This document shows positions 10,280 through 35,867 of a stretch of DNA of 64,000 bases, piece after piece. A program made the translations under genes and the position numbers. Under the pieces are notes generated by a model. It made no database searches. It was not told the DNA's origin and worked only from the letters and a program-made list of their open reading frames with translations. Origin of the DNA: Podarcis liolepis (Eukaryota). Within the stretch, counting starts at the first letter, position 1, and each line of letters begins with the position of its first letter. The stretch lies in NCBI GenBank assembly GCA_965112155.1, contig OZ218100.1. One strand, written 5' to 3'.

Positions 10280-10578
10280 TTCTGTACTTATTTATCTTCC
10301 CCTTATTTATGTTCCTACTCCCAGCATTTTCCTTCTTACAGAACCCCTTATTCCAACCCTGATTCTCTGACATGTCTCTTATTTGCCGCCCTGTTTCTAG
10401 GTTTTCAGCCCTATTGCTGCCCACATAACTTTCCTATCTTCATGCTTAATAGGTTGAATCCAATGTTAGTTCTACTCAGAACAGATTCATTGAAATCAGT
10501 GGGTCCACTTCAAGTCTAACTTAGTGGGATACAAGCCTACGTGTTTCCTTTTTCTGACATGCGCTGTTATTTTGTATA

Positions 10579-11471
10579 CAGTGGTGCCCCGCAAGACGAA
10601 CGCCTCGCAAGATGGAAAACCCGCTAGACGAAAGGGTTTTCCGTTTTGGAGGCACTTCGCAAAACGAATTTCCCTATGGGCTTCCTTCGCAAGACGAAAG
10701 CCCATAGGGAAATCTCCGGGACAGCGGGGAAGCGCAGCGCGTCTTCCCCACTGTCCTCGGACCTCCTCCAAAGGCTGGCGGTGGGGCGGAGAGACCTCCT
10801 CCCGCCGCCAGCCTTCGGAAGGCTGCTCCGAAGCCTGGTGGCGGGAGGAGGTCTCTCTGCCCCACCGCCAGCCTTCGGAAGGCTGCTCCAAAGCCTGGCG
10901 GCGGGAGGAGGTCTGTCCGCCCCACCGCCAGCCTTCGGAAGGCTGCTCCGAAGACTGGTGGCGGGAGGAGGTCTCTCCATCCCACTGCCAGCCTTCGGAA
11001 GGCTGCTCCGAAGCCTGGCGGTGGGGCGGAGAGACCTCCTCCCGCCACCAGGCTTCGGAAGGCTCCTCCGAAGGCTGGCGGTGGGGCGGAGAGACCTTCT
11101 CCCCGCGCCAGCCTTCGGATGGCTGTCCTGAAGACTTGTGGTGGGAGGAGGGTTTTCCTTCCCACTGCCAACATTCAGAATGCTGTTCTGAATGTTGGCG
11201 GTGGGGAGGAAAAACCCTCCTCCCACCGCAAGCCCCGGGAACAGAGGAGAAGCGCTGCGCCCCTTCCCCTCTGTTCCCGTACCTGTCCTGAAGGCTTGCG
11301 GTGGGGAGAAAAGCCCTTCTCCGCACCGCCAGCCTGGCAAGCAGTTTCCATAGGAACGCATTAATTGATTTTCAATGCATTCCTATGGGAAACCGTGCTT
11401 CGCAAGACGAAAAACTCGCAAGAAGAAAAAACTTGCGGAACGAATTAATTTCGTCTTGCGAGGCACCACTG
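10579..11471. mobile_element. Tc1/mariner-pogo-type non-autonomous transposon with an internal GC-rich minisatellite
   Basis: TIRs CAGTGGTGCCCCGCAAGACGAA / TTCGTCTTGCGAGGCACCACTG; TA at both flanks. Confidence 0.9.
10770..11235. repeat. ~60-bp GC-rich tandem repeat (~8 units) inside the MITE
   Basis: Recurring ...CCGCCAGCCTTCGGAAGGCTGCTCCGAAG... with a 60-nt period; explains the overlapping low-complexity ORFs on both strands. Confidence 0.9.
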
Positions 11472-24502: not shown

Positions 24503-24716
24503 AAGGCGTGTTCTCCTTCAAATGAGAGCACGTGTTGCGGTTGGGCGAATACAAGCCACCCTGCTGTTATCAGGCAGTTGAATGAGGTAGAACCCTTTAA
24601 AGGGTTAATTGAGTTACTGGGGAGTTTAGCATGTTGCCAATTAGGAAGGAAGGGCAGAGGCTATAAATACAGGTTACCCACGTTGGGGCGTCCTCTTGGC
24701 CTCTGCATCGGATCAC
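24503..24716 (+). repeat. Split direct repeat A1 (214 bp)
   Basis: Identical by eye to A2 at 30900-31113. Confidence 0.95.
24637..24700 (+). promoter_or_regulatory. Putative Pol II promoter in repeat A
   Basis: CCAAT 24637-24641, TATAAAT 24662-24668, pyrimidine-rich initiator-like CCTCTT about 30 nt downstream; duplicated in A2. Confidence 0.6.
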
Positions 24717-25608
24717 GGAGCAGATCGTCTGGAGCCTGGTTGTATTTGAGTATTTAAGAACTTTGCTTATCTGCTGCTGATTTCTTTGAGCCTTATAACC
24801 TTCTGTTCCTCCCCCTTTATTTATTTAATTTCCTTTCCACATTTTTTCCTCCCTCCTTCCGTTAATTCTCTCTTTTGGTTTAGTTTAATCTGAATTAGCA
24901 GCGGCTTTATTGGGAGCGGGAGTCCCCACCCCCCCCAGCCCGGGGGAGGCTTTCCTCCCGGCGTCGGGGAAGCGCCCGCGCTTTCGCCAGGCCGCGGCCC
25001 GCCCTCCCCCCGTCCTTAGCTCCGTAGCGCGGAGCGTCTCCGAGAGCCGCCCCCCCGCCCTCCTCGCGTCTCCCACACTTGGGCCTACCTGGAGCCGCGT
25101 CGGGCGGCTGGATTCGGGCCCACTTTTGCCGGAGGTCGTTGCCGCGTCGGCGGCGTCCCGTCCTCCGGTGCTGTGTCCTTGCGGCCGCGCGGCGGCGGCG
25201 AGGAGCGCGCTCCACCGGGGATTTCTTCAGCGGGCCCCTTTTGACCTAACAGGCCCACCCGCCTCGCGTTAGCGCGCGGGGGGGGGGCACATACAGGCCC
25301 GGTTCGCTAGCGCTGCGGCCTGGGCGCGCTCGCGGCCTGGTCGCAATTGCTAAGTCATTCCGGTTAGCTCCGCCATTTTAGGTAGCGTCTTGCCGACGGA
25401 GGCTCCCCCTGGTGGCTAGGATTGGTACTGCGCCTCAGTTGCTTTTCTTGAAGAGCTAGGCCGCACCCCCTACCCCTCGCCCCCTGCTGGTTGCTAGTAT
25501 ATTACGCTTTACTAATTGCTGTTTGGTAGTGATTGCTTTGCGTTTGGGCCTGCTGAGGCCTCCTGAGTTGGCAACAGTGCTCAGGACTGTTGTCCTGGCT
25601 TGGTTTGT

Positions 25609-25642
<34 letters not shown>
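25609..25642. repeat. (GATA)n microsatellite in the retrotransposon 5' leader
   Basis: Direct reading. Confidence 0.95.
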
Positions 25643-25820
25643 CTTCGATAGTCCGATACACCTGGCTGTTGCCTGGCCAAGAGACAGTCTTTATTCCGAG
25701 CTGCGGCCTAGATTTCACTCGAAGGCCCAACAGTGCTTTTTTGGTTGGAGGTTGCTAGCTTCATTTTGCCGTAGCGTTTGAATATTGACTTGGTTTTGAT
25801 TTTATTTCCTGCTAGCAGGT

Positions 25821-27347
25821 ATGGCTCCAAAGAAAGCTGCTGCGCGCTCCAGCTCTGTCATCGCGTCAAAGCGGCCTATTAGAGGTCCATCCCAAGCGCT
25901 TCGCTCTCCCCCCACCAACCAACCGGTGGGGCGAGTGCAATCGTTGGTAGCAGGCATGGCAGGTGACCCGGTGGCTCTATCTCGCTTCGCAGCTGACTTG
26001 GACCTTTTTCTGCAACATCGTTCTTCTCAACCATCAACATCTGGAGGGCTGCCCTCTTCAGCAGTGGTGCCGCCTCCGGCTTCATCGTCATCTAGCGAGG
26101 ATGAGGGAGAAGGACCGTCATCACAGGGTTTAATTAGGAACCCACAGTCATCCCAGTCTCCTGGCTTACCTGTAATACAGAACCGGCCTCGGAGGGCAGG
26201 CCGCCTGTCCAGGCGGGCCTCTGAAAAGAGTGCACCATTGGCTGTGTCCACTCGCCGGCGCACGCCTGCTCGGTCTCCACCGGTTGTGGCATCCGGGTCT
26301 GGTATCTCACATGTTGTCTCTATGCAGTCTGTTTCAGTTCCGTCCCAGCAGCATCCTGAATCGGAGTCCTCTGTCGAAGACAGTCTCCCGGTCCCCGCCA
26401 GGAAGTCCATGGGAGGGAAGCGTCGCCACAAGAGGGTGTCTCGAAAACGTGCAAAGCGCAGGAAGGACGACTCCTCTTCCTCTACTTCGGGTACGTCTTC
26501 CTCTAGCTCTGATGATGAGGGTACTCACTTGGAACTTTATTGGGGTTTTGGTGAATCGGCTTCAGGGCTTCCTAGGTGGGCTTGGGAACGCAGGTCCAAC
26601 GCTCATCGGGCAAAGTATGGGGCTGTTCAGGAATGCAGGGATGGTGTGTTGGTTCCCGACGTTAGAGTCTCAACCAATTCGGCCAGGGATATCATCCCAG
26701 GCTCACACTTGTCATCGAAATTGCGGTCCAGGATCTTAAATGGACGCTATGTAGACATTTTCAAATTGGCCCCGCCCTCTGAAGAGCAAGAAAAAGGAAG
26801 TGCTTCCACCAAAAAACGCTCAGGGGTTTCTGCGGCGGGTAGGTCCTTCGAACAGTGGCTCGACTGTTTTCAGGTCTTCGCCGGTATAGTCATGGCAGCT
26901 TATCCGCGTAGGTCCCTTCATTTGTTAGTTTATCTATCGATTGTGCGCTCTGCCTTTACCAAGGCGGGTGATAAAGCTGCAATTAAATACGATGAGAACT
27001 TTAGGCGCCGCGCGGCCAAGATCCCTTCTGCACGCTGGGATCGGAAAGATCTCGATGTGTGGACTACTTACGTCGCTCCGCTCATTGACAAAAAGGTACC
27101 GGAGCAGCAGAAACTGGGTGTCTCTACTTTTAGACCTGGCCGTCGATTGCCGTGTTGGGATTTTAACAGGACCTCATGTCAGCGTTCAACTTGTAGATTT
27201 GCGCACACCTGTGAGAAATGCAATGGATTGCATCCGGCTTCCTCTTGTTTTGGTGGACGGCGGCCCTTTCGTGGAGGAAAGGGGGGCTCCCAACAACCCC
27301 CCAAGTCAGTCCCCCCCACACCCTCAACCTCAGGAACAGCAAAATAA
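25821..27347 (+). CDS. gag: Ngaro Gag-like ORF1 (508 aa)
   Basis: S/P/R-rich N-terminus, basic cluster KRRHKRVSRKRAKRRK, core motifs RILNGRYVDIFKL / W..CF..F / KYDENFRR, C-terminal Cys/His finger CWDFNRTSCQRSTCRFAHTCEKCNGLHPASSC. Confidence 0.85.
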   Translation: MAPKKAAARSSSVIASKRPIRGPSQALRSPPTNQPVGRVQSLVAGMAGDPVALSRFAADLDLFLQHRSSQPSTSGGLPSSAVVPPPASSSSSEDEGEGPSSQGLIRNPQSSQSPGLPVIQNRPRRAGRLSRRASEKSAPLAVSTRRRTPARSPPVVASGSGISHVVSMQSVSVPSQQHPESESSVEDSLPVPARKSMGGKRRHKRVSRKRAKRRKDDSSSSTSGTSSSSSDDEGTHLELYWGFGESASGLPRWAWERRSNAHRAKYGAVQECRDGVLVPDVRVSTNSARDIIPGSHLSSKLRSRILNGRYVDIFKLAPPSEEQEKGSASTKKRSGVSAAGRSFEQWLDCFQVFAGIVMAAYPRRSLHLLVYLSIVRSAFTKAGDKAAIKYDENFRRRAAKIPSARWDRKDLDVWTTYVAPLIDKKVPEQQKLGVSTFRPGRRLPCWDFNRTSCQRSTCRFAHTCEKCNGLHPASSCFGGRRPFRGGKGGSQQPPKSVPPTPSTSGTAK

Positions 27348-28953
27348 GGTGCTGACTTCCTTGGCTCAGACTCCTATACGTCTGCCGGCCCTTAAAAAGT
27401 GGCTCAGGTTTTACCCAGATAGGGAGGCCGCTCGTTACCTGAGCGACGGTTTTTCTGTTGGTTTTCGGATTCCGGTAGCCAAGCCTCCCGTGGCTCGGAA
27501 TTCGTCTAATCAGAAATCAGTTCGTGAGTTGCCAGAAATTGCTCGAAGAAAGATCACAAAAGAGGTGGCTATGCACCGGATGGCTGGCCCCTTTTGTGCC
27601 CCTCCATTTCCTAAATTGCATGTTTCCCCACTGGGCATCGTGCCAAAGAAAGCCCCTGGTGAATTCCGTTTGATTCATAATTTATCACACCCTAGGGGTA
27701 CTTCAGTTAACGACGTGATTCCTCCAGAGCTTTGCTCAGTTAGGTATGCCTCTCTTGATCACGCGATCAAGATGATCCGGAAATTTGGACCAGCTGCGTT
27801 ATTGGCAAAATGCGACATAGAGTCGGCATTCCGTTTGCTGCCGATTCATCCGGAGGATTTCTGGCTGCTCGGTTTCCAGTTTGAGGGAAAATACTATTTT
27901 GACAAAGCCATGCCCATGGGCTGTTCTATAGCGTGCGCTGCTTTTGAATCTTTCAGTACCTTTTTGGAGTGGGCCCTCAAGCTGAAAACCGGGTTGGATG
28001 GGGTTACTCATTATTTGGATGATTTTTTATTGGCTTCTGATTGTAATACTGACAATTGCTCGGTTCTGTTGCAAGCTTTAGCGGCCCTTACTGAGGAATT
28101 GGGGGTCCCGTTAGCGGCAGAAAAGACTGAGGGTCCCTCGACTCAGCTCACGTATTTGGGTATCCTTTTGGATACGGTGTCTCAAACTTCTAGCTTGCCA
28201 AAGGTGAAGCTGGTGGCTTTGAAAAAGGTTATAGAGGAATTGCTTCCCTTAAAGAAAGTGTCCCTACTGCAGATCCAATCGCTGTTAGGTCACCTGAATT
28301 TTGCCTGTAGGGTGGTGGCCCCGGGCCGCCCCTTTTGCTCTCGTTTGGCTCGCCTCACGGTGGGCTTGAAGGCCCCGCATCATCGTGTTCGTCTTTCCAG
28401 GGAGGTGAGGGCTGATCTCAGCATATGGCTTGAGTTTTTGGAGGAATTCAATGGGGTATCGTTATGGCAAGACACTCTGAACTTGCAGAACGATTTTCAG
28501 GTGCACTCAGATGCTGCAGGGTCCCAGGGTTTCGGCCTATATTGGATGGGTAGGTGGTGTGCCAAGCGCTGGCCTCTTGACTGGCAGGGAACAGCCATTA
28601 CGCGGGACCTAACTTTTCTTGAGTTCTTTCCCATTGCAGTGGCAGTGCACTTGTGGGTCGAAGAGTTCAGGGACCGACGTGTCTGCTTCTGGACTGATAA
28701 CCAGGCGGTGGTGGACGTGCTGGCCAAGCTGTCGTCCCGCTCTCCTAGGGTGTCGGCCCTTTTGCGGGCTTTTGTTTTACATTGTTTACGTTATAATATA
28801 GTCTTTTCCGCTCGTTTTGTTCCGGGGGTGTCTAACGAAATTGCCGATGCTCTGTCCCGTTTTCAGATGGAGCGGTTCAGACTTCTGGTTCCAGAGGCTC
28901 GGAAACGTCCGGAATGTTTCCCGGAACATCTCTGGAGCCTTGGCAGGAGCTAG
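26941..28953 (+). CDS. pol: Reverse transcriptase-RNase H (ORF2); true start uncertain
   Basis: RT motifs FRLIHNLS, KCDIESAFR, MPMG, YLDD; RNase H SDAAG, LEFFPI, TDN, NEIADALSR; overlaps gag in the +1 frame. Confidence 0.95.
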   Translation: MCALPLPRRVIKLQLNTMRTLGAARPRSLLHAGIGKISMCGLLTSLRSLTKRYRSSRNWVSLLLDLAVDCRVGILTGPHVSVQLVDLRTPVRNAMDCIRLPLVLVDGGPFVEERGAPNNPPSQSPPHPQPQEQQNKVLTSLAQTPIRLPALKKWLRFYPDREAARYLSDGFSVGFRIPVAKPPVARNSSNQKSVRELPEIARRKITKEVAMHRMAGPFCAPPFPKLHVSPLGIVPKKAPGEFRLIHNLSHPRGTSVNDVIPPELCSVRYASLDHAIKMIRKFGPAALLAKCDIESAFRLLPIHPEDFWLLGFQFEGKYYFDKAMPMGCSIACAAFESFSTFLEWALKLKTGLDGVTHYLDDFLLASDCNTDNCSVLLQALAALTEELGVPLAAEKTEGPSTQLTYLGILLDTVSQTSSLPKVKLVALKKVIEELLPLKKVSLLQIQSLLGHLNFACRVVAPGRPFCSRLARLTVGLKAPHHRVRLSREVRADLSIWLEFLEEFNGVSLWQDTLNLQNDFQVHSDAAGSQGFGLYWMGRWCAKRWPLDWQGTAITRDLTFLEFFPIAVAVHLWVEEFRDRRVCFWTDNQAVVDVLAKLSSRSPRVSALLRAFVLHCLRYNIVFSARFVPGVSNEIADALSRFQMERFRLLVPEARKRPECFPEHLWSLGRS

Positions 28954-29837
28954 TTTTTCAGGGAGTAATGGCTTCTATTTCTCCTTCTACTCTCAGGTCA
29001 TACACTAAAGCATGGGCTGATTTTTTGTCCTTTACATATCAGTCAGCCGAGGAGCAAAGGGGGGCTTCCCCCTCTACTTCTCAGGTGCTAAGATATTTGG
29101 CGCACCTGTTTCAGTTAGGACGTGCAGCTAAGACGCTAAGAATTCAGGCAGCTGCCATTGCCTTTTTCTGCAAAGCTTATTTCGACAAAGATCCTTGCGC
29201 TAAATTTGCCGTGCGTAAGGCCCTTGAGGGATGGGGTAGGCTTTGTCCTTCCCAGCCAGCTACTAGGCACCCTATCTCATATGATTTGCTGTGCAAAATG
29301 CGCAAGGAGTTGAGGAAGGTTTGCTGGTCCAGGTATGAGGCTCGTCTTTTTTCTGCGGCCTTTTCTATTGCCTTCTTCGGAGCACTAAGGGTTGGTGAGC
29401 TCGTATGGGAGGAGCACAATAATGGCAGTTCTAGGGGATTATTGCTTCAGGATGCACAGCTATCTCCAGATGAGCTGAGGCTCCTCATTAGGAACTCAAA
29501 AACGGATCAGGACGGAAGGGGAGCCCTCATTCGTCTCCCGGCCACAAGGGAGGTGGGTCCGTGTCCGGTCAAAGATGTCAGGAGGTACTTGTCCATCCGG
29601 GCCCCGGGGGAAGGTCCACTGCTGCAGCACGAAGATGGGTCGCCTCTATCTAGGCGACAGTTTGCAAGGGTGATGCGGAAGGCCATTGCGGCTTGTGGTG
29701 ATTCTGCTAGTGATTTTGCCCCACATTCTTTCAGGATTGGGGCTGCCACGACGGCAGCGCATTGGGGCCTGTCTGCAGGCAGAATAAAGAATTTGGGTCG
29801 TTGGAAGTCGAATGCGTTTAGAGGCTATGTTCGCTAA
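28914..29837 (+). CDS. Tyrosine recombinase (phage-integrase family), 307 aa
   Basis: Catalytic set ALRVGEL (R), SKTDQ (K), HSFR (HxxR), GRW, terminal Y in FRGYVR. Confidence 0.95.
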   Translation: MFPGTSLEPWQELVFQGVMASISPSTLRSYTKAWADFLSFTYQSAEEQRGASPSTSQVLRYLAHLFQLGRAAKTLRIQAAAIAFFCKAYFDKDPCAKFAVRKALEGWGRLCPSQPATRHPISYDLLCKMRKELRKVCWSRYEARLFSAAFSIAFFGALRVGELVWEEHNNGSSRGLLLQDAQLSPDELRLLIRNSKTDQDGRGALIRLPATREVGPCPVKDVRRYLSIRAPGEGPLLQHEDGSPLSRRQFARVMRKAIAACGDSASDFAPHSFRIGAATTAAHWGLSAGRIKNLGRWKSNAFRGYVR

Positions 29838-29893
29838 CATGATGTTTTATATTTTGTTTCTCTATACCAGGTTTAGCAGCCGTACGCATATGG

Positions 29894-30445
29894 ATGGTGG
29901 GGCACAGTATCGTACATTGGGCCGGTGTTGGAGCCAGGCAGCTCAGATTGGGACCAGGTCTCGGCCTTCCTCCTCACGTGCGCGTATCTTGGCTGGCCAG
30001 AAGGGGAATGTCCTGGACTGAGTTTCTGCCACTGATTCGTAGGCAGCTAGCCGAGGAAGGGCCGCCCTCGGCCATTGTTGTGCAGTTGGGTGAGAACGAC
30101 CTGGTTTCTATGGACTGTGCTTCTTTACGTGCTGCTATCTTGGGTGATCTTGAAGTGCTGCGAGCAATGGTGCCGGCAACAAAAATTTTCTGGTCAAAAT
30201 TTTTGCAAAGGCGCAGTTGGAGAGGCAGTCGGTGCCCGACTGCCACCGAAAGGGCTAGGAAGCGGATCAATTCGGCAGTCTCAAAAAAGGTTTTTGAGTT
30301 GGGAGGTGACGTGATTTCTCATCCTGAGATTCTGGCTAGGGATGAATCTCTTTTCAGGGATGATGGGGTGCATCTTTCGGCTTTAGGGAATAAAGCGTGG
30401 CTGGGTGCTGTGGTGGCTAAGCTAAGGTCTTGGCTGGGTTCGTGA
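29894..30445 (+). CDS. SGNH/GDSL-family hydrolase (esterase) ORF; probably a spliced exon starting at 29871
   Basis: Blocks VGHS (Ser), RRG, QLGEND (Asn), DGVH (His). Confidence 0.88.
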   Translation: MVGHSIVHWAGVGARQLRLGPGLGLPPHVRVSWLARRGMSWTEFLPLIRRQLAEEGPPSAIVVQLGENDLVSMDCASLRAAILGDLEVLRAMVPATKIFWSKFLQRRSWRGSRCPTATERARKRINSAVSKKVFELGGDVISHPEILARDESLFRDDGVHLSALGNKAWLGAVVAKLRSWLGS

Positions 30446-30475
30446 GTGGTTTGGCGGCGAGCTTAAGGCTCCATA

Positions 30476-30901
30476 TGGCGGTTAGGCATTGGTTTAAAAT
30501 TGGTTGGGAGGGGTAAGTGCCTACCCCTCCAATGGTGGTGCGAAAAGGGAATTCCGTTAAAGGAATCCAGGGGCTTGCCATTCTTTCGTCCTTGTCCCCG
30601 GAGTCGGACCTGGGCCGTGCAAGCCCCACAGGAACATGAGGGTGAGAGGTGTGGGACTGTTACCCAGCCTCACCTTCTCACCCAATACTTGTTTCCCAAG
30701 CTGGCTTCCGCTGGAATCCGGAAGACCAGCCCTGTCCCTGGGCAAGGACAGATAGTCTTAACCAATGCCTAAGCAACCACTCACGTATTTGTATTTTAAT
30801 AAAGTTGTGGCCAAAAATCATGCCAAAAACCTTAAACAAAAATTAATGTGTGAAGTGTGAATTATTTTGGTGAGGGTGGCTTTGTGGGACTCAACACGCA
30901 A
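30476..30901 (+). repeat. Split direct repeat B1 (426 bp)
   Basis: Matches B2 (offset 811) with two substitutions seen: 30541 C / 31352 T and 30554 C / 31365 A. Confidence 0.95.
30798..30803 (+). terminator. Poly(A) signal in B1
   Basis: AATAAA followed by GT/T-rich downstream sequence. Confidence 0.6.
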
Positions 30902-31113
30902 GGCGTGTTCTCCTTCAAATGAGAGCACGTGTTGCGGTTGGGCGAATACAAGCCACCCTGCTGTTATCAGGCAGTTGAATGAGGTAGAACCCTTTAAAGG
31001 GTTAATTGAGTTACTGGGGAGTTTAGCATGTTGCCAATTAGGAAGGAAGGGCAGAGGCTATAAATACAGGTTACCCACGTTGGGGCGTCCTCTTGGCCTC
31101 TGCATCGGATCAC
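30900..31113 (+). repeat. Split direct repeat A2
   Basis: Identical to A1; contains CCAAT 31034-31038 and TATAAAT 31059-31065. Confidence 0.95.
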
Positions 31114-31286
31114 CCGCCCACCCTCCCTTTTAAAGGGGGGGTTTCTTGGTTATTGACCTTGCTATGCCTGTCATGGGGTCGTTCGCCTTGGTGCGGGGGC
31201 CTGGTAGGAATTTACCATTTGGCTGATTGGCTGGTGCCATTTGGGTTTCGCCTACTACGTAGCAAATAAGTCACAACTTGTAAGGT
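31114..31286 (+). ncRNA. Unique A2-B2 spacer; candidate structured RNA element
   Basis: Nested complementary segments, e.g. TTGCTATG/CGTAGCAA and TGGTAGG/CCTACTA; no meaningful ORF. Confidence 0.45.
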
Positions 31287-31712
31287 TGGCGGTTAGGCAT
31301 TGGTTTAAAATTGGTTGGGAGGGGTAAGTGCCTACCCCTCCAATGGTGGTGTGAAAAGGGAATTACGTTAAAGGAATCCAGGGGCTTGCCATTCTTTCGT
31401 CCTTGTCCCCGGAGTCGGACCTGGGCCGTGCAAGCCCCACAGGAACATGAGGGTGAGAGGTGTGGGACTGTTACCCAGCCTCACCTTCTCACCCAATACT
31501 TGTTTCCCAAGCTGGCTTCCGCTGGAATCCGGAAGACCAGCCCTGTCCCTGGGCAAGGACAGATAGTCTTAACCAATGCCTAAGCAACCACTCACGTATT
31601 TGTATTTTAATAAAGTTGTGGCCAAAAATCATGCCAAAAACCTTAAACAAAAATTAATGTGTGAAGTGTGAATTATTTTGGTGAGGGTGGCTTTGTGGGA
31701 CTCAACACGCAA
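31287..31712 (+). repeat. Split direct repeat B2 (element 3' end)
   Basis: Copy of B1; ends ...CAACACGCAA; AATAAA at 31609-31614. Confidence 0.95.
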
Positions 31713-33291
31713 CCACACTTCCATAAGCTGTGGCATTACCAGGAGTGCCTCAACAGTTGAGGCAGGGTTGTGCAGGGCAGTAAGGAGAAAGGTGTTTCTT
31801 CAGGTATCCTGATCTCAAGTTGTTGGCACACCATACCAATTATGCACCTCCAAAAAGAAGCAGGCTTCATCATTGTACATGATCTGCCCTAACCATCTTG
31901 CATTAGAGGTAGATGCTATCAGAACATTGTGGGACTGGCCATGCAAAAGAAGTTGCAGCCATGCCACTGCTCCAGAAAAGATACAAATAATCAAATCCAA
32001 ATAAACTTGAAGAAAGGTTTTGTAGCGAAACACCACACATAAAATTGAACTTTCTGTTACCCCATGCTTGGAAGTGATCAACAGGAAATGGTTTCCACTA
32101 CCATTATGCCATGTTTGTGAACAACTCATAGGCATATAGGATACTTCCAAAGACTACTTTTGGAAACAGAAAGCGAGTAGATTCTGGAAGTCAGTTCTTA
32201 TAGCAAACAGTTCAAGCCTAAACATGTCTACTCAGACTCAAGCGTCACTAAATTCAATAGGGCAATCCCAAGTCAGCATGCTTGTTAGGAGTAGCTAACA
32301 TGGTGCCTTCCATATGTTGTTGGAATCTAACTCTTGTCAGTCCCAGATAGCATGACCAAGGGCCCACTAACATTCAGTGGGCCATAGGTTCCTCATCGCT
32401 GTTTACAAGATGCTTATAAGGTAAATGCTCTAAATTTAGCAGGAAACAACCTTCAAATATTTGAATATAAGACACCTTCTAATATTTATTTTTCAGCATG
32501 ATTTAACAGCTGACTGGAAATGCAGACAGTTTTAGGATGAATTCTGCTTAAACATGCTGCTTACTGGAAATTACCGATCATAAATTGCTTGTGCTTTTAC
32601 AGCATATGGGACTAAATACCGTATAATTATGCTTGTCATTTGAATTGTTGCTATACTGTTATTCACACTTGAGCAATTATTGCTTTTTTTGAAAAACAAA
32701 AAAATAAAAGTATGAGAACCATTGTTCTCTTGCTCACACCTGTGAGCTACAACCCAAAATCAAATGTTTTAATCTCACTGCCTTCTTTTCTTCCCACGAA
32801 GGTTGTTCAGGTTTTGCCTATAATGCTACTGCAGTCTATTAAATAGCTCTCATTGTGCCTGACTCAGCTGGTTCCTAAAATTTTCAGTACTGCTCTTACT
32901 GAAGTGATTGAGAATCCTTCTTTGGGCTTTTAAATGAAGCTGGGTCAAGCTCAATTTTTAGACTGAGTTCATTTGGAACAGGCACTGAAAGAATCCATAC
33001 TGTGCCTGCCTACATGTTTTCAATTCATTCTAAAAGAAATCCTGTGTCACTTTTCTGAGGAGATTTGGTTCTAATTGTACTACAATTATTTATAAAGGAT
33101 GCTTTATTATCCTCAAGATAGCAACTAAAATTATTTCTACCTTTGAGTGTTTGGGATTAGGAGAAATTATCTCGGGTTCTTTTTATTGTTGCTGCTGTTA
33201 ATAATCTTCATGTAGATTTCAGGACACTTTCATATGTTACCATGAAGATATCTTACTTATTTTTACAATTTAGAATGGTCCAGAAGTAAAG

Positions 33292-33443
33292 ACCAAACCC
33301 TGGTCGGAGCCTTGTGCTCATGAATGGGCTTATAAATGGTCAAAGCATGGTCTGGCATTGTACTTGAACCAAACCCTGGTCGGAGCCTTGTGCTCATGAA
33401 TGGGCTTATAAATGGTCAAAGCATGGTCTGGCATTGTACTTGA
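33292..33443. repeat. Perfect 76-bp tandem duplication
   Basis: ACCAAACCCTGGTCGGAG...GTACTTGA occurs twice, followed by the microhomology ACAAACCC. Confidence 0.95.
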
Positions 33444-34010
33444 ACAAACCCATTGTGTCTACATTCCTCTTATTTTGTTTATTTTTGCTAAAAGTAGCCA
33501 CTCACACCCGTGGTGTATCACATTTCTATTGTTCATTAATCCATTGCTATAGTATATTTTAATACATTCTTTTTATTGTTTATTTCCAAAACAACTACGC
33601 TTCTCACATAGTTTGATTTTACGTGCATGATAGTTGATAGATAAATAGATAGATAGATAGATGAAGCATAGATTGCAAAGTAGATTGGAAACATGCCATG
33701 AGGGAAGGGGTTCTTAACCCTTTGTGCCCACTTGAGTCTTGGTCAGAATTCCCCCACCCCTATGGTTGTTGTTCACAATGAAATGAAGTCTCTCTTTGTT
33801 CTATGGGAGGTTTTTTTCTATTCTAAAGAGCCGGGAGGGGAATTCTGATTAGGACAATGACAAGAACAAAAAGTTACAGCCCTCTTCCCTTGCATCAGGA
33901 TCCCAATTTATGTGAGCTATTTAAAAAGAAAAAAAGAAATATTTCATGCAAGACCAAGTCACATGACAAATATCATGTCTAGTTAAGTCCTGAAACACAT
34001 TAGTTCTTAC

Positions 34011-34764
34011 CTGCAAACATTGGGGGGCATATACATTCATAGGACTCTGCATCAAGTTCTCCTTTCACTCCCTTTCTAACGCAGGAGGCGTTGTTGTAGC
34101 AGGGCTTACTGGAGCACACATCAAATTCTTGGCAGAATTGTCCCGAATACAACTGGTTACAGTGGCAATTGTAGGCTTCCTCCCAGATGTGACTTAAACA
34201 TATGCCCCGTCCAGAGCAAAAGGGTGCACTTCGAGACTGCTGGCAAAGATGTGGTTTCACTGTCACATTCAGCCTCAGCCCTAAATTACATAAAGGTGGC
34301 CCTCGGCTCGGGACTTCAGTGAAATAATGCGTTCCAACTCCAAGCCATTGCGGGTCGATCTGATGCATCCCACTTAACCTGCAACCAAAAATCATCTGCA
34401 GCTGAGGGATATCAGTTTGTTGAGGACACCTGATGAATTCCTCCCGGGAAACATTTGCCAAGTTCATGCCATGCGACTGAAAAGAGGGCTCGGAGGAAAC
34501 AAATAGTGCATCTCCCAACTGAAGCTGTAGAGGACAAAGCTGGGGATGACTCAAAGCTGAATGTTCTAGAGCATTCACATCGGTATTCCAGCAATCGGCG
34601 TAGAAGTTGGAACAGATGTTTTGGGTCAGGGACCACTTCACAATATGTACTGTCGGCTGCAGTTTCCATTCTGAAGTTGAAGACCTTTTGCAGGCAGTCT
34701 GCCCGTCAACAATGCAACCTTGAAAGACATGAACCATCACAACAATGATTGACTTTAGTTTCAT
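34011..34764 (-). CDS. EYS: EYS (protein eyes shut homolog) first coding exon: signal peptide, N-terminal domain and two EGF-like repeats
   Basis: Translation aligns with the human EYS N-terminus (W.LT.NIC..FY.DCW, CPLQ.QLGD.L..SSEPS, FGCRL.GMH, GTHYF, LGLRLNVTVK, FCSG.G.CLS..W, FSG/YSG..CQE.D.CS.KPC.NN); ends at the phase-1 donor G|GTAAGA. Confidence 0.96.
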
Positions 34765-35867
34765 TGTTCATTAGGAGAAAAGATGGGCGCACCTCATTAC
34801 AACTGTGCTTCTTGAAGACAGGAGTGATCCTTTCAATTGCTGCACGGTTGGAGCCCTTTCATTTACGTTCCACTGCCATCTGTGAAATGATAAAGATATG
34901 CATGCATGAACAATGTGATATCTTTGGATAAAATATTGGCACTGAGACCACAGTGCTAAGATCAAACAACATCATCAACAAAGCAGGGAAGAGTATGCCC
35001 AGTTGTTCAGACTCCCTTCCACCTGCACAGCTATTACATACAACAAAATATAAGCATCAGCAAGAAAACTCGGACAGCAACAGAAACATCCAGTGGCAAC
35101 CAAGCTAAAGCAGTCTCAAAAGCTCCTCTGAAATGCCATGCTTCCATTTCCCTGTAGAAGACAAGAAGAAATGCAATGAGAGTGCTTTCAACTGTGCTCT
35201 CGACTTGCCTCTGTTGAAGATGAGACATGGCACAAGGCTTTCCCCAGTAATTACAGTTTGAATGCATGCAGTTTACTCTAGACCCAAATAGTTTAGGCCA
35301 TTTAAAGGTTAAAGCCACAATTTTCAATTGGAGAGATAGTATGATATTGGTGTTTTTCAAATTTCAGTGGCACCCTGTGCGAGGCCAAATTTTGGCACCC
35401 TCCACCTCTCACCTTCCGTTCTACTCAATTCACTACATCATAGTTGCAACACCCTGCAGCACCTCCTAGGCTCAGTGCCCAGTGCGGCAGAACCAGGCGC
35501 TTTGCCCTAAACCCACCTCTGCATGTGATCATTAATGCAGGCTCCCACAAGCAACCTAGTTAATGAATTCTGTACCAACTGATGGTTCAAGAGGCAACTT
35601 CAAAGGCAGTCCCACACAGAGCATGTAAACATGATTTAAGCTGGGTGTAACCAAGATGTGTGCAAGTTGTAGTAAGACCTGCCTTCTAAATAAAAAAATA
35701 ATCCATATAAGGCAGTTTTCTAGTCTCATAATATTAAGATCTTCTCTGTCTCTAGATAGGAAGAAATGATGGAGTTGGATATCAAATGTGTATTGGTGAA
35801 ACCAGACACCAAATCTGTTGGCCTCAGAGATAAACATACCCACCTAGTATGTTGTCAGAACTAGCCC

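Follow-up and report, generated by a model that had tools for sequence, protein, structure and literature searches.

Ngaro-like elements of Xenopus have the same layout as the retrotransposon analysed here, including the SGNH esterase (PMC9210276). Two of them, DIRS-53_XT and DIRS-54_XT, share with it the A1 ... B1-A2-B2 repeats and four ORFs for gag, RT/RH, YR and SGNH (PMC9210276). The main text of that paper uses the term "secondary structure" 0 times, and no description of a spacer RNA element was found there (PMC9210276). In ENEs a U-rich internal loop forms a triple helix with the poly(A) tail (PMC7583470, PMC13541005). The ENEs of Evade/Copia93, the single and double ENEs of plants and fungi and the KSHV PAN ENE have in common with the predicted fold of the Ngaro spacer a sense-strand U-rich loop between G-C-rich helices (PMC12501189, PMC7583470, PMC13541005). 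Those of transposable elements also share its location, non-coding spacer sequence with the poly(A) signal of the retrotransposon a few hundred bases downstream, and the ENE of Evade, which lies in the spacer that separates ORF and 3' LTR, promotes mobility (PMC12501189). For CR1 LINEs the conserved 3' feature in print is a terminal hairpin and octamer, which differs from the spacer fold (PMC4316615). In the literature covered by the search, no structured element was found described in Ngaro spacers and no ENE in CR1 or DIRS elements.

The window, the 64,000-nt stretch of Podarcis liolepis DNA that was analysed, contains an intact, young Ngaro-type tyrosine-recombinase retrotransposon encoding SGNH at 24503-31712. 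Self-comparison gave split direct repeats in the Ngaro order A1 ... B1-A2-B2. Repeats A1 (24503..24716, + strand; TATAAA at 24662) and A2 (30900..31113, +; TATAAA at 31059) are 100% identical over 214 nt. Repeats B1 (30476..30901, +; AATAAA at 30798) and B2 (31287..31712, +; AATAAA at 31609, ~350 nt downstream of the U-rich loop described below) are 99.5% identical, with 2 differences. Reverse transcriptase and tyrosine recombinase ORFs are present and the SGNH ORF follows the latter, which is the Ngaro gene order. ORF1 (25800..27347, +; from the ORF list) has a C-terminal Cys/His knuckle and no Pfam match; it is gag-like by position, a presumptive label taken from the Ngaro layout (PMC9210276). 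ORF2 (26929..28953, +) encodes a reverse transcriptase (Pfam RVT_1, E 2.7e-13), with RNase H expected. ORF3 (28836..29837, +) encodes the tyrosine recombinase (Pfam Phage_integrase, E 3.1e-5) and has relatives in lizards and amphibians. ORF4 (29843..30445, +) encodes the SGNH/GDSL esterase (Pfam Lipase_GDSL_2, E 1e-5). The closest named proteins to those of the element are from lacertid lizards. Protein scans of viral contigs gave no Ngaro loci.

Several minor features of the element were recorded. No target-site duplication was present at its ends. A short inverted repeat around a 3-base core spans the B1-A2 junction (30893-30909) and is likely a recombinase site. Splice-acceptor-like pyrimidine-rich sites precede ORF1 (about 25800-25819) and ORF4 (about 29845-29871), suggesting spliced mRNAs. 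A GATA microsatellite lies at 25605-25641 within the 5' leader. In the B repeat a 13-bp long-range helix was predicted (31293-31305/31571-31583) that closes several strong hairpins within 31292-31583 of the window, and the same was predicted in B1. Two parts of B, 31288-31305 and 31360-31395, had very deep coverage in relatives' contigs. The B repeat may be a second structured element.

Repeats A2 and B2 are separated by a spacer of 173 nt (31114..31286, +), unique by self-comparison and with no second copy within the window. The initial annotation had described a branched fold of an outer helix, a hairpin and inner helices in this spacer, and both coordinates and helices were recovered in the MFE structure of 31149-31277 (+), at -41.9 kcal/mol. 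The predicted three-way-junction module (31154..31273, +) is delimited by the MFE structure, by contig-piece starts in relatives and by its counterpart at locus L042. It is closed by P1 (31154-57/31270-73 and 31159-66/31258-65, +; MFE). The P2 hairpin (31177..31201, +; MFE and variants) is made up of 31177-80/31198-201, a bulged G31181 and 31182-86/31193-97. The P3 arm (31202..31257, +) comprises a lower helix P3a (31202-08/31251-57), a U-rich internal loop, upper stems and an apical GATTGG loop, the TGGC/GCCA upper stem lying at 31220-23/31236-39 (+; MFE). Among the helices originally listed, P1, P2, P3a and TGGC/GCCA stood, and the AATTTA/TGGGTT register was replaced in the MFE structure by a 6x6 internal loop (31209-14/31245-50) with 31215-17 paired with 31242-44.

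The folding energy was unremarkable (z -0.93), with 35/200 shuffles folding equally well. Pair probabilities were 0.74-1.0 for P1 and only 0.25-0.5 for P2 and P3. Inclusion of the context 31085-31400 gave a different predicted fold. A search of 30400-31800 with the Rfam 15 covariance models gave sub-threshold matches only, none of them on the spacer. The fold is taken to be more than chance because of the comparative evidence given below, not because of its energy. With that evidence the RNA structure of the spacer is very probably real. Judged by sequence comparison, the spacer is predicted to hold an RNA structure that is conserved, acts in cis and lies on the sense strand of the Ngaro transcript. 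Two further pairings were seen outside the module. At the start of the spacer (31114-31142) there is a predicted hairpin of 10 bp (31120-29/31133-42), and pairing of the first five spacer bases with the beginning of B2 (31288-31292) would close the whole spacer.

Of the 24 listed runs, 4 were aligned to 31000-31520 at 80% likeness, among them contigs of three other organisms. In all three organisms the block 31154-31273 was 50- to 1000-fold deeper than A2. Summed depth, which is not copy number, was 91,806-1,164,046 over 31162-31269 compared to 510-2,211 over A2 (31000-31089), and B was also deep (13,865-544,865). The depth step coincides with the P1 boundary, 8 of the 24 listed contig pieces begin at 31152-31154, and one 286-nt contig aligns solely to 31154-31267. 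Many copies thus share the module and B and diverge in A. One RNA run aligned to the spacer region gave 58 reads on both strands, none of them 99% alike and with no end pile-up.

The substitutions in these relatives bear on the pairing itself. Among the best-supported 40 of 109 substitution rows, 11 fell within the module. All five of the substitutions at paired sites in these 40 rows preserved pairing, where the expected share is 0.33 for each and 0.004 for five, at sites that are not fully independent. Two further substitutions in the same 40 of 109 rows give P2 an additional pair at its top. The remaining four module substitutions lie at unpaired sites, and two of these put a further U into the internal loop. 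The covariation anticipated among Ngaro spacers was found in this pair-keeping form (5/5 among the best-supported 40 of 109 rows). In P2 the variants 31183 T>C, 31184 C>T, 31187 C>T and 31192 T>A kept or added pairs, and in P3 the variants 31254 A>G, 31256 T>C and 31257 A>G kept them. The alternative fold predicted with context retained only 3/6 pairs under the same variants. The U runs were lengthened by a T insertion after 31210 and by 31245 G>T and 31249 C>T. Loose-end consensuses showed partner changes from C-G to U-A at 184/195 and from U-A to C-G at 202/257, and a consensus C at 205 that fits the G variant at 254. From these consensuses we infer that partner changes are linked in the relatives.

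A degenerate P3 pattern scan gave 79 metagenome loci and 34 prokaryotic-genome loci, the 34 being taken as chance controls. Only three of the 79 metagenome loci (L041, L042 and L072) carry the motif family, and all three come from one metagenome with vertebrate, probably bird, DNA. The repeat found there comprises 2-3 tandem motif units, 70-82% alike between loci, and spans L041:7210-8280, L042:690-1745 and L072:5390-6090, with ~550 nt of decayed sequence upstream and, after the units, a poly(A)-like signal. It was also seen as spurious ORFs in several assemblies. The 52 nt upstream lie outside the pattern; when 66 distinct sites were ranked there by likeness to the spacer, the three loci, which form a single family, came 1, 3 and 5. 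The first unit of L042 folds alone to the same junction (z -3.2, 0/200 shuffles). In the first units of L041 and L072 the junction was not the MFE structure (z -1.4 and +0.9, respectively). Rfam 15 covariance models gave only sub-threshold matches on L042 650-1350.

A covariance model built from the spacer alone was run on 37 of the 113 loci, 33 of these being non-vertebrate controls. It matched the first unit of L042 at 30.3 bits (E 3.4e-6), which puts a counterpart outside lizard Ngaro, in a tandem repeat from what is probably bird DNA. The other bird-like units scored at most 11.2 bits. In the 33 non-vertebrate controls no pattern site scored above 12.2 bits, and a single site outside the pattern reached 18.8. 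In a hand alignment of the spacer with L042 unit 1, 28/28 pairs were kept, 6 of them through a double change, including a G-C/A-U double change in P2. The reverse comparison was weaker. With the RNAalifold structure, a model built only from the bird-like units did not find the spacer, and one with the L042 fold gave it a non-significant 9.1 bits (E 3, rank 13 of 17); in a search of 67 sources with the latter model the spacer was not among the matches. BLASTN of the Ngaro element against the bird-like loci showed no similarity, and self-comparison of those loci showed no A-B repeat layout. Homology of the spacer and the bird-like repeat is likely from these alignments, mainly through one well-kept copy. 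The module is very probably a conserved RNA structure within a known element type, and it is probably shared with at least one other vertebrate repeat.

Other leads from the scans were set aside. L093, from the same metagenome as the bird-like loci, was judged to be a chance match. Reading the DNA upstream of the bird-like units as YR or SGNH coding gained no support; what the searches matched were spurious ORFs belonging to the bird-like repeat, and a single repetitive protein that is unrelated. UCON3 and SINE-body identities gave no lead. In viral contigs 18 loci had the first pattern and were taken as chance, 0 had a tighter pattern and 1 had a CR1-type pattern.

The conserved feature could in principle be a DNA site. 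At 31223 the spacer carries CTGATTGG, a reverse CCAAT or NF-Y box, and the fold around it would then be incidental or due to chance. The deepest bins in the relatives (31216-31251) include CTGATTGG, and the folding z of only -0.93 suits this explanation. The pair-keeping and double changes in P1, P2 and P3a are left unexplained by it. In addition, both L072 units have an altered box and L072 unit 3 has none. A conserved DNA site as the whole explanation is considered very improbable.

The best-surviving core of the module is the U-rich internal loop between G-C-rich helices. In the window copy there are three U on each strand, with AA and CG between the U runs and the lower G-C pairs; the AA may pair with UU, shrinking the loop. 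Loose-end consensuses of the relatives have four U then CC on the 5' strand and five U on the 3' strand. Runs of at least four U on both strands are found in 7/8 bird-like units, and L072 unit 3 keeps the loop with the apical part missing. On the upper side of the loop a single A separates the U run from the C-G pairs in the window copy; in the relatives' consensuses and in L042 these pairs adjoin it directly. On the lower side AA and CG/G separate the U runs from the G-C pairs. Judged by sequence, the module is sense-oriented and close to the 3' end, with a poly(A) signal downstream of it (AATAAA at 31609 and at L041:8204).

These features are compatible with an ENE-like poly(A) clamp set within a three-way junction, a reading of the sequence that we favour tentatively and give somewhat less than an even chance. 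The poly(A) tail added after the B2 signal would fold back into the U-rich loop as U.A-U triples, and the triple helix would shield the tail from deadenylation. Given its place between A2 and B2, the module would be present only on RNA whose synthesis runs past the B1 poly(A) signal or begins at the TATA box of A2, and it would therefore favour full-length RNA containing the B1-A2 junction. Transcription, poly(A) site use, triplex formation and stabilisation of Ngaro RNA are all putative steps here. There are differences from known ENEs. In contrast to theirs, the Ngaro loop makes up one of the arms of a three-way junction that also has a bulged-G hairpin and a GATTGG loop, and the window copy has short U runs (3+3) with AA/CG before the lower G-C pairs. 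P1, P2 and the apical loop lie outside the features of ENEs in the available text of the published descriptions (PMC12501189, PMC7583470, PMC13541005).

The conservation of P1, P2 and the apical loop beyond the needs of an ENE fits a protein-binding signal on the full-length RNA. Such a signal could act in packaging, in RT or Gag recognition, or in CTE-like export of unspliced RNA, with the junction and GATTGG loop being recognised and the U-rich loop serving as a protein pocket. It would also fit the position of the spacer, which marks only RNA reaching B2. The splice-acceptor-like sites before ORF1 (about 25819) and ORF4 (about 29871) would add to its appeal, as unspliced RNA may need an export or packaging mark. 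Against a protein signal, both U runs are lengthened by the relatives' variants, the bird-like units retain the U loop while losing the apical part, and there was no Rfam match. We regard the protein signal as possible and only a little less likely than the ENE-like clamp.

A different role for the spacer would lie in reverse transcription, as a site of priming or template switch, or in a short A2-spacer-B2 RNA transcribed from the promoter in A2 and comparable to the SIRE of VIPER. A2 has TATAAA (31059) and B2 has AATAAA (31609), SIRE equals the A2-B2 region of VIPER (PMC6681497), and a 12-bp pairing is possible between 31190-31201 and the 3' end of A. This 12-bp pairing is disrupted by the common variant 31192 T>A, and the counterpart of the module consists of tandem units in a repeat that lacks the A-B layout in self-comparison. 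A reverse-transcription or short-RNA role is held to be improbable. As a separate observation, the A2 TATA box, the spacer and the B2 poly(A) signal (31059-31609) could make a stand-alone unit of ~550 nt, like the SIRE of VIPER (PMC6681497). Stand-alone A2-B2 derivatives could account for the spacer and B being far deeper than A in relatives.

Frog and turtle CR1 UTRs may carry a motif similar to that of the spacer. The form in amphibian and reptile CR1 3' UTRs would be ATTGG...GGTTTTT(C)GCCTTCC, of which GGTAGG...CCTAC in the spacer would be a compensatory variant. The initial annotation had named this GGAAGG/CCTTCC form, and it was found in a bird-like repeat unit. At L072 a CR1 ORF2 end lies directly upstream of the motif-bearing repeat, near the contig end, but no CR1 tail was found downstream. 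No CR1 ORF2 end lies upstream at L041 and L042, which share a different upstream sequence. Within the window, both CR1 3' ends with ORF2 remnants have short UTRs in which the motif is absent (2/2). The motif was not found in the supplements of PMC4316615, PMC8665684, PMC11303007 and PMC6523648, sets in none of which untrimmed CR1 UTRs are established; the alignment of PMC4316615 is trimmed at the ORF2/UTR boundary.

Capture of esterases by several retroelement classes is already in print (PMC5408684). A single-sequence PDB search with the SGNH ORF gave no match. With a profile of Ngaro SGNH proteins the best PDB match, and so the best solved relative, was 4c1b (E 9.7e-5), which is the ZfL2-1 ORF1p esterase (PMC3905857). 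This profile match indicates that the Ngaro and LINE esterases are related. The ZfL2-1 esterase lies within the LINE ORF1, far from the 3' UTR, and no physical link to the RNA fold was found. In the Ngaro element the fold is ~700 nt from the SGNH ORF, behind B1 and A2. No SGNH signal was detected upstream of the bird-like units, where the DNA is decayed and which represent one other carrier family only. Motif and esterase were accordingly not seen together at the bird-like loci, and the suggestion that they form a shared module gained no support from the ~700 nt that part them in Ngaro or from the upstream DNA of the bird-like units.

The spacer offers a defined, testable 120-nt cis element that bears on how Ngaro/DIRS elements select and protect full-length RNA. 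If it is an ENE, poly(A) triple-helix protection would also reach tetrapod retrotransposons and elements of the tyrosine-recombinase class, with the three-way junction as a new setting for it. Should the CR1 link hold, a module of structured RNA has passed from one retroelement class to another and has very many copies in reptile, bird and amphibian genomes. The broadest reading is that a three-way-junction module with an ENE-type poly(A) clamp is common to unrelated tetrapod retroelement classes (YR Ngaro, the bird repeat and long-UTR CR1 LINEs) and in Ngaro is positioned to stabilise the full-length replication template in preference to RNAs that terminate at B1. Taken as a whole this is unlikely.

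Three other features of the window were noted. A GC-rich tandem array at 10490-11380 has open frames on both strands. An exact 76-nt tandem duplication occupies 33292-33443. A host exon with EGF-like domains lies at 34000-34767 on the minus strand, ~2.3 kb downstream of the Ngaro element and on the opposite strand to it.
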